Positions 59,692 to 63,279 are shown, counted from the first letter of the stretch. The stretch is 64,000 nt of DNA from Alphaproteobacteria bacterium UBA3760 (GCA_002371155.1 DFGC01000010.1:740-64739); one strand, 5' to 3'. Notes: generated by a model not told the origin, from the sequence alone. A program made the numbers and translations.

Positions 59692-60003
59692 TTATTCAAA
59701 CCAAATTTCAACACGATCGTCCCCAGATATCGTCCCGGACGATGTTTTAACGGGAATTGTCACCTCGCTTTTTGATACGGTCACGGTTCCGTTATTCGCA
59801 GTGACCCCGGTCACAATCGCCCCCGTCCCAGATTCAACAACATTTGTTGATGTCAATTTGTCTTGTTTTGTTGCGTCCATATGGTTGTATGCACCATCAA
59901 CATATGATGCCGCCGCAACCACAGACGATTTGTCCACTTCGCCCGCGGCAAACGCCGGGATGACCAAGAATATTGCAACAAAAACACAAAGCAACTCTCT
60001 CAT
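59692..60003 (-). CDS. Small secreted fibre-like protein
   Basis: Signal peptide MRELLCVFVAIFLVIPAFA, then ASYVDGAYNHMDATKQDKL and T/V/G/S-rich beta-like repeats. Confidence 0.6.
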   Translation of the reverse strand: MRELLCVFVAIFLVIPAFAAGEVDKSSVVAAASYVDGAYNHMDATKQDKLTSTNVVESGTGAIVTGVTANNGTVTVSKSEVTIPVKTSSGTISGDDRVEIWFE

Positions 60004-60091
60004 ATCGTATAAAAAAATCTGGAAATTTTATCGAACATCATTATACACGATATTGATAAAATTGTCCAGATTAAAAATTAATATTTTATTA

Positions 60092-61141
60092 TTAGTTTGC
60101 CTTGTATGTGACCGTTCCTGCCGAAATCGTGGCTGTTTTGTCTGATGTATTGCCGGTCAATCCGGTAACGGCCTGGGTTTGTGTCAAATCAACATTGGCC
60201 AAAATCTTGTCTGTTGCCGGTGTATCAGACCCCCATGTGTCCATAACGGTAATCTTGGCATTTGCCGTGCCGGTAACCGCACCCGTTTGAACCCCCAATC
60301 CGCTAAGGTCATATGTCACCGTTGCACCATTTACCGCCGCCGCAGCAGTTGCCGCCGCGCCTGTCGTTGTTGCATAGTTGCCAGACAAACCGTCGATTGC
60401 CGTTCTAACCGCTTTTTCGGTCACCAATTTATTTTCACTCGCGTTGGCAGCGTCTGCGGCAATTGAATTAACAACTGTGCCGGTCTTGAAATTGTCGGTC
60501 TCTAAATTACTGATGGTTGTGGAATCTGCATCGATTGTGCCACCGGTAATCGTTGCACCCGAAACCGTCCCACCAGAAATCGCTGCATTTTGAACCGTGC
60601 CACCGGAAATATTTTTGTTTGTCAATGTCTGTGTCCCGGTTTCTGTGACCATGCCATTGATTGCGGTTGCGACGGCTTTCTCGGTCACCAATTTTTCATC
60701 AGATGCAGTGGTATCGGTTTTGATACCCGCCGATGTTGCCAATGCGGCACTGTTGAAATTATCTGTTTCCAAATTGGTAATAGAATTTCCCGTGCCATTC
60801 GCATCAATTGTTTTGTTGGTCAATGTTGCCTTGCCATCTGCGGTCAATGCCCCAGATGCGGTTTCCGAAACTTTATTGATTGCACGGATTGCCGCGTTAT
60901 ATGCACCCTTGACATATCCAGCCGTTGCGACATTGCCGTCATTTTGACCCTCGAGTGCCAACGCATATTTTGGACCATCACCCGCAGTGACGTTATCCGC
61001 CGTCTGGACAGCCGCCTGTTCCACTGGGACCTTGGTAATATTGGTTGGCGCGCCGGGGACAATCTCGCCCACGGCCGCATTTGCCGCCATCGGTAAAATC
61101 GCCAAAGCCGCAATAACCGAAATATTCAAAAATTTTTTCAT
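60092..61141 (-). CDS. Secreted repeat-containing fibre/adhesin-like protein
   Basis: Start ATG 61141 has GGAGAG upstream (the track start at 61156 is TTG). Signal peptide present. TAGYVKGAYNAAI, and two internal modules each with TLTNK..., (I/S)(T/S)NLETDNF and (E/N)KLVTEKAV.TAI.G. Confidence 0.7.
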   Translation of the reverse strand: MKKFLNISVIAALAILPMAANAAVGEIVPGAPTNITKVPVEQAAVQTADNVTAGDGPKYALALEGQNDGNVATAGYVKGAYNAAIRAINKVSETASGALTADGKATLTNKTIDANGTGNSITNLETDNFNSAALATSAGIKTDTTASDEKLVTEKAVATAINGMVTETGTQTLTNKNISGGTVQNAAISGGTVSGATITGGTIDADSTTISNLETDNFKTGTVVNSIAADAANASENKLVTEKAVRTAIDGLSGNYATTTGAAATAAAAVNGATVTYDLSGLGVQTGAVTGTANAKITVMDTWGSDTPATDKILANVDLTQTQAVTGLTGNTSDKTATISAGTVTYKAN

Positions 61142-61158
61142 TCTCGTTCTCTCCAATC

Positions 61159-61198
61159 GTTTGTTTGTTTGTTTGTTTGTTTGTTTGTTTGTTTGTTT
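61159..61198. repeat. Tetranucleotide microsatellite (GTTT)10, i.e. (AAAC)10 on the coding strand of the downstream gene
   Basis: Ten perfect tandem units counted in the sequence. They end 18 nt upstream of the ATG at 61141, immediately 5' of its RBS. Confidence 0.98.
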
Positions 61199-61275
61199 GA
61201 CCGTTTTTATTTAACTACATTATATCACAAAACGGGTTCTAAAAAAAACGATATAATGCATAAATTTTTACTTTT

Positions 61276-61746
61276 TTATGGTTTCAAGAATCCTGAATCC
61301 CAACTGTCTTCAACTTCGACGGCTTGCCACGAACCAACACCGTTTGCATCGGTTTTGAAAACATATGTTGCGTTGTTTTCGGTTTCACCCAAATTCAGCC
61401 CGACAACATTTTTTCCGTCTTGTGTTTTGGTTATTTCGATACCTGTCCCATCAGTGTATTCCTGAGCATTGTTAATGTTAGTTATCGCGGTTTTCAATTC
61501 ACTAATTGCACCGGTGACGGTTTCTGCCTTTGTCCCCATTGCGGTATCGCCAACCTTGTCGGATATTGCTTTGGCATCATCCTTGGCGGATTTATACACA
61601 TATTGCAAACCTTCATCTACATACCCCTTGGTCGTCAATGCCGCCGCCGTTGCATCCGGTTGACTAACGGGGTCATCTGCGTATGCTGCGCCGACCGAAA
61701 CCGCTGATATTGATGCCATCAAAGTCCATAAAACGCTTTTCTTCAT
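61276..61746 (-). CDS. Secreted fibre-like protein
   Basis: Signal peptide, TKGYVDEGLQYVYKS, YTDGTGIEITKTQDGKNVVGLNL, and a C-terminal SWDSGFLKP. Confidence 0.65.
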   Translation of the reverse strand: MKKSVLWTLMASISAVSVGAAYADDPVSQPDATAAALTTKGYVDEGLQYVYKSAKDDAKAISDKVGDTAMGTKAETVTGAISELKTAITNINNAQEYTDGTGIEITKTQDGKNVVGLNLGETENNATYVFKTDANGVGSWQAVEVEDSWDSGFLKP

Positions 61747-61782
61747 CTATTTCTCCTCCATTTTTTTGTTCATTTAATTTTT

Positions 61783-62406
61783 TTATTGTAATAAAAATCC
61801 TGGGTCAAAATTATGCACGACATTTGCGCCGGGAATTTGACTGATTTTTTGGTTCAGATTATCGATTTCTTGATTTATTTCGTCAATTTCGTTTGGCAAA
61901 GTCATGATTTCATCAGTCAAACTAATTGTTTTGCCGTCAAAAACGATACCGTCCCCAGATTCTAAATTTTCTTGTTTTGTAGATATTTCCGTTTCTAAAT
62001 CCGTAACGCGTTGCGCCAAATCCAATGTGGCGGGACTGTCAATCACGGGTTGTTGTTGCTGTTGTTGCTGTTGCGCAGAACTTGTTGATAACTTGGAACT
62101 CAATCCCTTGATAACACTATTATGCAGGGCGGACAACCGCATCGAATTATTGTTGTTGACCGGTTTTTCTGCAACACTTATCGAATTGTTTGTGTTTGTC
62201 GGTGTGCTTGACAATCCAAACGCACGCACAGACGATGCGCGCGGACTCGCCGGTAATTTGGTCAGGCTTGTTTTGTTGATATTATTTTGGGTGTTATTGG
62301 TTGTGTTGATGCCAAATTTTTTTACTGTTGGCGCTGCGAACACCTGGGATGCCGACATACCCAAAATAACCGACACAAACATCAAAAACATCGCGCTTTG
62401 ACGCAA
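61783..62406 (-). CDS. Secreted coiled-coil/fibre-like protein with poly-Gln tract
   Basis: TTG start at 62406 is preceded by AAGGAG at 6 nt. Signal peptide, N/T/S-rich region, Q8, heptad-like LDLAQRVTDLETEISTKQENL, GDGIVFDGKTISL, and a C-terminal NFDPGFLLQ. Confidence 0.6.
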   Translation of the reverse strand: MRQSAMFLMFVSVILGMSASQVFAAPTVKKFGINTTNNTQNNINKTSLTKLPASPRASSVRAFGLSSTPTNTNNSISVAEKPVNNNNSMRLSALHNSVIKGLSSKLSTSSAQQQQQQQQPVIDSPATLDLAQRVTDLETEISTKQENLESGDGIVFDGKTISLTDEIMTLPNEIDEINQEIDNLNQKISQIPGANVVHNFDPGFLLQ

Positions 62407-62557: not shown

Positions 62558-62589
62558 GATTTTCGTCATATGGTTATAGGGAGATGTTT

Positions 62590-63279
62590 ATGAAAAAAAT
62601 TCTTTTGTTCTTGTGTATGGTTTTTATTACAAATACCGCCAATGCCCGGGTTGAATATTACGCGTCGGCAAAATTTGGGTTGGGGGACACAACAATATAT
62701 TTGGATGGCGATACCAATTTGGGTGATTGGTTGGTCCAAGAATCTGAACATAATACCGGACTCGATGGATTTAATTATGATGCGTCGGGATTGTTATTTG
62801 AAATATCTCCGGCGGTTGGCATTGATTGGAGCATGAATAATACATACGGCACAAAAAGCAAATATGGTTGGTTTCATCTGCGGTTAGAGGGCGAAATCGG
62901 ATACAATCATTATAATGAGAAAGGAGACCTAAAATATTTTTATGCGGTTACCGATAAAACAAAAATCAGTTTTAATCAAATGTTTATATTGACGAACGGA
63001 TATATGGATTTTCATATTGATAACATTATTCCGTATGTTGGTGCGGGAATTGGATATGGTTTTGGCAACCAAGATGTGACATTGGAAAATGAATTTGGCG
63101 AATTCAATGATTCTGGGTCAGATGACGGAATAATTTATGCATTGCATTTGGGTATGGCATATAAATATTCCGATATAACAACATTCGATTTAGGATTCCG
63201 TCGCGTTTGGGCACCAACCACGGACGACGGCAAATATGTTTTTGATTCTGTGCGTTTTGGGGCGCGGTTCCGGATATAA
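62590..63279 (+). CDS. Small outer-membrane beta-barrel protein (OmpA-beta-barrel/opacity-like)
   Basis: Start ATG 62590 lies 6 nt after AGGGAG. Signal peptide MKKILLFLCMVFITNTANA, about 8 amphipathic strands, and a terminal VRFGARFRI. Confidence 0.65.
   Translation: MKKILLFLCMVFITNTANARVEYYASAKFGLGDTTIYLDGDTNLGDWLVQESEHNTGLDGFNYDASGLLFEISPAVGIDWSMNNTYGTKSKYGWFHLRLEGEIGYNHYNEKGDLKYFYAVTDKTKISFNQMFILTNGYMDFHIDNIIPYVGAGIGYGFGNQDVTLENEFGEFNDSGSDDGIIYALHLGMAYKYSDITTFDLGFRRVWAPTTDDGKYVFDSVRFGARFRI

Follow-up and report, generated by a model that had tools for sequence, protein, structure and literature searches.

Four Sec-exported fibre-type proteins encoded at a conserved locus of gut Alphaproteobacteria as a candidate adhesive surface structure

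Bdellovibrio bacteriovorus encodes mosaic adhesive trimer (MAT) fibres, in which a signal peptide and a conserved N-terminal domain precede a phage-like trimeric fibre with mosaic variable parts (PMC10769870). Judged by architecture, these adhesins appear to be the closest known analogue of the locus described here. We analysed a 64,000-nucleotide stretch of Alphaproteobacteria bacterium UBA3760 (GCA_002371155.1 DFGC01000010.1:740-64739; hereafter the window), in which four adjacent minus-strand genes are found in the open reading frame (ORF) listing. We call them P4, P3, P2 and P1 in order of transcription (62406 to 59692) and write P1w to P4w for the window's own proteins. An earlier note on this DNA had reported that each gene starts with a signal-peptide-like N terminus, and this was borne out. 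We propose, with moderate confidence, that the locus is a lineage-specific, operon-like set of four Sec-exported, non-enzymatic fibre-type proteins and most likely a variable adhesive surface structure.

The likeness to MAT fibres lies in several features: the proteins are encoded by the cell, a signal peptide and a family-conserved region stand in an analogous arrangement, and phage-tail-fibre-like modules form the body. Moreover, the parts are mosaic and swappable, several paralogues exist and the host must attach to other cells. The two systems nevertheless differ. They share no detectable sequence relationship and occur in hosts of different classes; a profile search of the PDB returned no MAT fragment, and no Peptidase_S74 domain was matched in P1-P4 or in 64 P2 homologues. 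P1-P4 measure 100-350 aa, compared with roughly 600-1100 aa or more for the described MAT constructs, and form a fixed four-gene locus. Finally, P2 varies in the middle and is conserved at both ends, whereas MAT fibres vary at the C-terminal tip.

Phage tail fibres and fibritin-type whiskers are a further point of comparison. The centre of P2 is homologous to phage fibres, the P2 family includes a match to a PHROG tail-fibre family, and a vocabulary of motifs is shared (KQDKL, GxGIxI..ISL, YTKxYVD and NDxGFL-like). P3 resembles T4 fibritin in its short coiled-coil segments between Gly-rich loops. Unlike phage fibres, however, the proteins of this locus carry signal peptides and are encoded in a conserved chromosomal context outside any prophage, and P1, P3 and P4 have no phage homologues. 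Trimeric autotransporters (type Vc, YadA/UspA) are likewise modular fibres that are exported, have coiled-coil stalks differing in length and vary as surface antigens. They differ in that P1-P4 lack a YadA-type C-terminal anchor and head or neck motifs; no YadA_anchor or other autotransporter Pfam family was matched by P1-P4 or by the 64 P2 homologues. An anchor like that of trimeric autotransporters at the P2 C terminus, where a helix and four strands are predicted, was considered and rejected: for a membrane barrel the strands are too short and too polar, and YadA_anchor was not matched.

Neither of two other surface systems fits the locus. The ORFs that neighbour the locus in the window lack the PapD and usher domains of a chaperone-usher pilus, and no such Pfam match is recorded for the called genes of the related loci L001-L003 and L047. 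The C-terminal domain of type IX secretion system (T9SS) cargo, Por_Secre_tail, resembles a module formed by mature P1 that is beta-rich, ~75 aa long and C-terminal on Sec-exported proteins with unrelated N termini. P1w did not match Por_Secre_tail/TIGR04183 in Pfam or NCBIfam, and T9SS is not known in Alphaproteobacteria. Since a free-standing P1 is present in every genome, a docking or co-assembly role fits the module better than that of a cleaved export tag. The locus was tested for the defining features of trimeric autotransporters, chaperone-usher pili, T9SS cargo and prophage modules; these are absent, and it belongs to none of the four kinds.

The named homologues all derive from metagenome-assembled genomes (MAGs) of gut or rumen that are labelled Alphaproteobacteria or Candidatus Enterousia and belong to the order Rs-D84. 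Rs-D84/Enterousia bacteria are widespread in animal and human guts. Genomes of Rs-D84 are smaller than ~1 Mb and encode no flagella, TCA cycle or respiration; the lineage has been proposed to live as an obligate symbiont or parasite, drawing metabolites from other cells (PMC12306168). A scan of one genome per GTDB species returned 35 loci, and gene order was established by ORF-level BLAST. The order, with the gene of an outer-membrane protein (OMP231) divergent from P4, P3, P2 and P1, is kept in ~30 species-level MAGs. An intact prophage around the four genes had been named beforehand as a finding that would refute displayed fibres, and we found housekeeping and OMP genes on the flanks instead. 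The window is chromosomal, with genes for malate/lactate dehydrogenase, CvpA, peptidase U32, tRNAs and three small OMP barrels; it also holds ORFs of the size of rpoB and rpoC (1378 and 1370 aa, identified by size only). No other phage genes occur within ~10 kb on either side of the locus, in the window or in related contigs. Given these flanks, the lack of nearby phage genes and the same order in ~30 MAGs, we exclude a prophage as the explanation.

P2 carries the phage connection. Its signal peptide and N-terminal region (ATAGYVKGAYNAA) are conserved and are followed by two phage-fibre-type modules and a likewise conserved C-terminal beta domain with an invariant W303. The fibre-style motifs TLTNK, NLETDNF and KLVTEKAV that had been pointed out at the outset are indeed present in P2w, as a twofold internal repeat: TLTNK..NLETDNF..KLVTEKAV occurs twice, in a duplication of approximately residues 104-163 and 195-252 (internal repeat score 130, compared with 43 ± 7 in shuffles). 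Residues 88-252 of P2w are 44% identical over 159 residues (E=7e-20) to P0119, a protein of 546 aa without a signal peptide. P0119 is encoded on a 153-kb contig (L004; GC 0.35) beside genes with Collar, Phage_tail_C, GPW_gp25, baseplate-wedge (PHROG) and lysozyme domains. The P2w module also occurs on seven IMG/VR viral contigs (L005-L011). Phage homologues of the P2w centre are ~550 aa long, lack a signal peptide and start with MAE/MAQ..SHLNLGGNE... In addition, we observed that the fibre genes of L004 and of L005-L011 share the LTNK/NLETDNF/LVTEKAV module of P2w, and that proteins with DUF285/leucine-rich repeats (LRRs) adjoin the fibre genes on L004; domains of this kind are also found joined to the P1 module in proteins of cells.

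Across the P2 family, the centre is a mosaic of cassettes between a conserved N-terminal part and a conserved C-terminal domain. The cassettes include LTNK-type, AKIADSNVTT, GTTNGTV..GLGSAAY and fibritin-like VGDNTSGLVKDV repeats. Three relatives matched phage families: residues 46-209 of P0064 matched the PHROG tail-fibre family phrog_28766 (E=7e-20), P0094 matched phrog_25848 (E=1e-4) and P0045 matched the PHROG "fibritin neck whisker" (E=9e-4). Single P2-family members also matched Pfam Fibritin_C and Av_adeno_fibre. P2w itself had no match above threshold in Pfam, PHROGs, NCBIfam or the PDB, in keeping with all four window proteins, for which sequence searches of these databases returned nothing above threshold; a tblastn search of 50,697 GenBank phage genomes with P2w was also without a match. 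P2-like genes occur in tandem arrays of two to four, in place of a single P2, in several Rs-D84 MAGs (L015, 6001-9350, with four copies; L029, L030, L032, L038, L039 and L040). In two of these, L030 and L038, P1 variants carry a P2-type extended N-terminal region, bridging the P1 and P2 families.

The earlier note had associated the whole cluster with phage tail fibres and spoken of domesticated fibres. The tail-fibre link held for P2, through P0119, the IMG/VR contigs and PHROG families, and not for P1, P3 and P4, which lack detectable phage relatives and resemble fibres in short idioms only: KQDKL, GxGIxI..ISL and NYYTKQYVDQIVSQL, the last in most P4 relatives. Domestication of fibres is too simple a description: what is common to these proteins and phages is confined to the cassettes, and the scaffold of conserved signal peptide, N-terminal region and C-terminal domain around them is lineage-specific.

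All four proteins have the features of export. By inspection, each N terminus has Lys/Arg, then a single hydrophobic stretch, then a small-x-small site (AFA/AGE, ANA/AVG, AYA/DDP and VFA/APT in the four proteins). The 12-residue Kyte-Doolittle maximum is 1.9-3.6 at the N termini and ≤1.2 elsewhere in P1-P4. These appear to be ordinary signal peptides of the signal peptidase I type, at which cleavage would be expected.

A YV motif (YV-x-G-x-Y) common to P1, P2 and P3 had been noticed in the window, and we found it conserved across the homologue families. A relaxed form of the pattern matched five times among the six-frame ORFs of the window, three of them being P1w, P2w and P3w. Y76 and V77 are invariant in the 64 P2 homologues, in which ATAGYVKGAYNAA is nearly invariant; LTTKGYV is invariant in 33 P3 homologues, and SYV(E/D)GAYN is conserved across 31 P1 sequences. 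Profile-profile comparison (hhalign) supported homology of the P1 and P2 N-terminal regions with 98% probability (E=1e-13), and gave weaker support for P1/P3 (72%) and P2/P3 (78%). The motif is real, and is better seen as the first element of the ~75-aa module of mature P1, which is C-terminal in other proteins. P3 and P4 share a second motif, [DN]-[PS]-G-F-L, near their C termini, in the family forms EVEDSW[DN][PS]GFL in P3 and F-DP[GS]FL in P4, and their C-terminal profiles matched with 69% probability (E=4.5e-5). A relationship between the two C termini had been proposed, and its conservation in both families agrees with this; however, its position at the extreme end is not strict, as up to ~10 residues may follow, for example TTPANP or ..GQP in many relatives. 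The xDxGFL motif may have a sorting role.

P3 and P4 contain coiled-coil segments. P3 is built of a signal peptide, an invariant LTTKGYVD, a helical/heptad stalk, GTGIEI and a C-terminal beta region (TYVFKTDxNGxGSWQxVEVEDSWDSGFLKP). P4 has a signal peptide, AAPTVKK, a region rich in S/T/N that includes a poly-Q run, two heptad segments, a GDGIVFDGKTISL motif and a C-terminal NFDPGFLLQ. The heptad segments of P4w lie at residues 128-150 and 170-193, with a score that none of 300 shuffles reached, and all a and d positions of the second are occupied by Ile or Leu. Under the GCN4-pII rule, such a pattern of a and d residues favours trimers, and with Ile at both core positions P4 may be trimeric. 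P3w has one heptad segment (1/300 shuffles reached its score). Relatives of P3 contain zero to five inserted repeats of ~22 aa (GNTPGTGLTGDVEALQDxVG), hence a stalk of variable length. Weak PDB matches of the P3 profile were to T4 fibritin (1aa0; E=0.07) and the DC-SIGNR neck (E=0.003). A foldon-like C terminus of P3 was considered (TYVFKTDxNGxGSWQ..SGFL, against the T4 foldon AYVRKDGEWVLLSTFL); no search supported it, the match to fibritin covers the coiled-coil part only, and the idea is no more than a lead. A sub-threshold FIVAR match of P3w was dismissed, as it was not reproduced with family profiles. Apart from these, the poly-glutamine run of P4w is encoded by mixed CAA/CAG codons and differs in length by one residue from that of the close strain L001.

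P1 is the most conserved of the four proteins across species (45-70% identity) and consists of a signal peptide and one ~75-aa module (SYVxGAYN..KQDKL..SGxGxxVTxVTAxNGTVTVSKSEVTIPV..IWxE). Sequence and module-profile searches found no counterpart of this module in Pfam, NCBIfam or the PDB. An exhaustive HMMER search with P1w returned 64 representative proteins, including three repeat-composition artefacts (P0181, P0187 and P0234), long repetitive matches that we dismissed as Ig-like, MBG or Listeria-Bacteroides repeats. The remaining matches are either P1-sized or longer signal-peptide proteins with mature P1 at the extreme C terminus. In these proteins (in the range P0195-P0243), the N-terminal parts are unrelated to one another: the module follows S309-like domains (P0210 and P0221), DUF285/BspA-like LRRs (P0219 and P0243), fibre-type repeats (P0216, P0224 and P0240) or a P4-like N-terminal half (P0205). 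S309 is an exported protein encoded convergently with P1 in the window. It has no family match and ends with ..MWDFVDKKLYYPAGTGQMGYGVDP; homologues of 44-51% identity occur in L016, L041 and L044, and in L016 and L044 they are encoded directly downstream of P1 on the same strand. S309 is possibly associated with the locus. From the fusions, we infer that P1, P4 and S309-type proteins act together, and the recurrence of the P1 module suggests a common docking or assembly unit. In L001, a gene of 1227 aa without a recorded Pfam match stands at the S309 position.

The four genes evolve quickly. We estimated dN/dS (the ratio of nonsynonymous to synonymous substitution rates) from one strain pair, the window strain and its close relative L001. 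Protein identity and dN/dS were 84% and 0.18 for P4, 87% and 0.36 for P3, 90% and 0.49 for P2, and 74% and 0.30 for P1, compared with 98.5-99.7% and 0.02-0.04 for OMP231, OMP357, OMP330 and peptidase U32. P1-P4 thus evolve ~10 times faster than flanking genes. The divergent OMP gene noted beside the cluster is real, with a weak match to Pfam OmpA_like (E=6.6e-5, below cut-off). OMP231 is syntenic in at least 16 MAGs, is 50-64% identical across species and is under strong purifying selection, and its synteny makes it a candidate partner or anchor.

What is presumably the 5′ leader of P2 contains a (CAAA)n microsatellite, flanked by an extended -10 element and the ribosome-binding site. Ten copies are present in the window, and 9, 11, 11, 11, 7, 2 and 1 copies in strains from other metagenomes with a P2 of 87-99% identity; it is a perfect short tandem repeat with a strain-variable copy number, as is characteristic of simple-sequence contingency loci. 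In distant species, the promoter box and the extended -10 element are kept and the leader is imperfect and A/C-rich; the microsatellite is therefore a recent expansion of a conserved unstructured leader. When we folded the leader with 0-15 repeat units, CAAA was predicted to be unpaired at any length and the accessibility of the ribosome-binding site was almost unchanged (0.25-0.36). The microsatellite parallels the tetranucleotide AGAT repeat of Moraxella uspA2, which varies between strains and lies in the 5′ untranslated region; it tunes the level of this fibrous adhesin (as summarised in PMC4679880). By this analogy, CAAA copy number may affect P2 expression.

Taken as a mechanism, the proteins would leave the cytoplasm through Sec and be cleaved by signal peptidase I, after which P3 and P4 would oligomerise through their heptad coiled coils, perhaps as trimers. 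P2, with its own promoter and a central cassette swapped between species, would be the main exposed component, and P1, as a free copy of the ~75-aa module, would probably serve as a common docking or co-assembly unit. The structure may then be presented at the outer membrane, possibly through OMP231 as its synteny hints, and may bind partner cells or host material. Binding of this kind is suggested by the lifestyle of the lineage, the fast evolution of the locus and its modules of phage receptor-binding type. Surface display, passage across the outer membrane, the role of OMP231 and adhesion are thus predicted. The combination of fast evolution, cassettes exchanged with phages, tandem duplications and a polymorphic microsatellite is typical of exposed, selected antigens.

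Several results weigh against a variable adhesive surface structure. Domain searches of P1-P4 found no outer-membrane translocator, lipobox, beta-barrel anchor or known sorting domain. P1w and P2w have no significant heptad pattern, and P1w, P3w and P4w had no significant match in PHROGs or IMG/VR. RNA folding predicted no structural switch in the P2 leader, and no switching mechanism is evident. The raised dN/dS values stay below 1 and also fit relaxed constraint on repetitive proteins. The monomer models from structure prediction reached low to moderate confidence. With AlphaFold2, P2w (predicted local distance difference test score, pLDDT, 69; predicted template-modelling score, pTM, 0.35) was modelled as an extended chain, largely coil apart from a helix at the N terminus and four strands at the C terminus, and the model of P3w is poor (pLDDT 56). 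Foldseek found no significant fibre relatives; with the P2w model, it returned nothing significant from the PDB and BFVD, the best viral matches being tail fibres (E ~0.15), and with the P3w model it returned nothing from the PDB. Where fibres intertwine, monomer models are expected to give such a null result, and the Foldseek searches count neither way.

Other explanations share part of this evidence. P1-P4 might be subunits of a polymeric appendage or layer, such as a new pilus, fimbria or S-layer, with P2 as the major subunit and P1, P3 and P4 as minor or adaptor subunits, instead of independent trimeric fibres. The operon-like layout would suit it, in which one abundant-looking gene comes with a promoter of its own and a leader rich in A/C, as would a P2 with conserved ends and a hypervariable centre as in flagellins and major pilins, a P2 C terminus of alternating beta-strand with a conserved aromatic residue (..ISAGTVTY..), and the very small, very conserved P1. 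However, neither in the window nor at 30 related loci is a chaperone, usher, secretin, sortase or type I/II secretion gene found next to P1-P4, and no pilin or S-layer family was matched, leaving this explanation unlikely. Marginally less likely still is a periplasmic or envelope-structural role without surface exposure, for instance as coiled-coil proteins that space the outer membrane from the cell wall or tether the two together. It would account for a Sec signal alone with no outer-membrane route identified, for the coiled-coil segments of P3 and P4, and for a locus that is kept across the whole lineage and adjoins three OMP genes. It accounts poorly for proteins that evolve ~10 times faster than the neighbouring OMPs, exchange central cassettes with fibres of phage receptor-binding type, and show tandem duplications and a polymorphic microsatellite.

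Release of the proteins as effectors, either bacteriocin-like or soluble lectins, is improbable. P1w gave a match to the Pfam PA-IIL fucose lectin (E=0.0055; 17.5 bits, with a cut-off of 21) and P2w a very weak PDB match to a bacteriocin (E=0.23), but neither reaches significance or recurred with family profiles, and no immunity or export genes are adjacent. Even less credence attaches to a remnant of a prophage, tailocin or gene-transfer-agent tail-fibre module, an idea that draws on the homology of P2-family cassettes to phage tail-fibre proteins and is largely refuted: no other phage gene occurs within ~10 kb of the locus in the window or on related contigs, signal peptides are present on all four proteins and lacking from the phage homologues, the order is fixed in ~30 species and the GC content is normal. 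A variable adhesive surface structure is our preferred reading.

A more tentative extension of this reading, which we regard as rather doubtful, concerns the P1 module (YVxGAYN..KQDKL..SGxGxxVTxVxAxNGxVTVxKxEVxIP..IWxE). It might be a new C-terminal docking or sorting domain of a lineage-specific surface-display system, through which fibre, LRR/BspA-like and S309-like (lectin-like) proteins would be mounted on a base of P1, P3, P4 and OMP231, with P2 carrying exchangeable receptor-binding cassettes of phage origin for attachment to other cells.

We found no published description of the locus in Rs-D84/Enterousia in the literature searched. The locus, present in every species sampled, provides a concrete candidate attachment apparatus for a widespread, uncultured, partner-dependent gut lineage with a small genome. 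It would offer handles on partner finding by antibodies or by fluorescence in situ hybridization with immunolabelling, on strain-level antigen variation in metagenomes and on the traffic of modules between phages and adhesins. New here are several sequence families and one recurrent C-terminal module outside Pfam, NCBIfam, PHROGs and the PDB.

The coordinates of the locus and its neighbours are collected in Table 1. In the ORF list, P2w spans 60092-61156 and has 354 aa from a TTG codon, five codons more than the form starting at ATG. The true start is most likely the ATG at 61141, as every homologue begins with MKK(F/L)LNIS; an exact-sequence look-up of the 354-aa form gave zero matches because the real start is downstream. 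P4 and P3 are separated by only ~36 nt and are thus probably co-transcribed. An extended -10 element, TGATATAAT, was read from the sequence upstream of both P4 and P2; that of P2 is retained in distant MAGs together with an upstream ATGCATTATAT box, and the promoter scan found no -35 match for it. The GC content of the locus is unremarkable (0.44, compared with a window mean of 0.42).

Table 1. Positions of the four genes, their regulatory elements and neighbouring genes in the window
Feature	Position	Strand	Length	Remarks
OMP330	54376-55368	plus	330 aa	small beta-barrel-like OMP
OMP357	55498-56571	plus	357 aa	small beta-barrel-like OMP
S593	56459-58240	plus	~540 aa	probable start near 56606
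S309	58705..59634	plus	309 aa	exported; convergent with P1
Intrinsic-terminator-like hairpin and T-run	59646..59672	minus		3′ of P1, end of locus
P1 (P1w)	59692..60003	minus	103 aa	
Sigma-70-like promoter of P1	60040..60068	minus		TGGACA-17-TATAAT, 11/12 matches; promoter scan
P2 (P2w)	60092..61141	minus	349 aa	ATG start
(CAAA)10 microsatellite	61159..61198	minus		GTTT on plus strand
Extended -10 element of P2	61219..61227	minus		
P3 (P3w)	61276..61746	minus	156 aa	
P4 (P4w)	61783..62406	minus	207 aa	TTG start 6 nt after AGGAG
Poly-glutamine run of P4w	~62045-62075			residues ~113-121
Extended -10 element of P4	62429..62437	minus		P4-P3 unit
OMP231	62584..63279	plus	231 aa	small beta-barrel outer-membrane protein; divergent from P4

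The three OMP genes gave weak family matches: the 330-aa protein to the Autotransporter beta-domain (E=9.5e-4), the 357-aa protein to the Rickettsia adhesin Adr (E=3.9e-6, far below cut-off) and the 231-aa protein to OmpA_like, as described above. Purifying selection is strong on all three (dN/dS 0.02-0.04). We also observed that S593, an exported protein with a Cys-rich middle and no family match, is fast-evolving (dN/dS 0.36 against L001), unlike the adjacent OMP genes.

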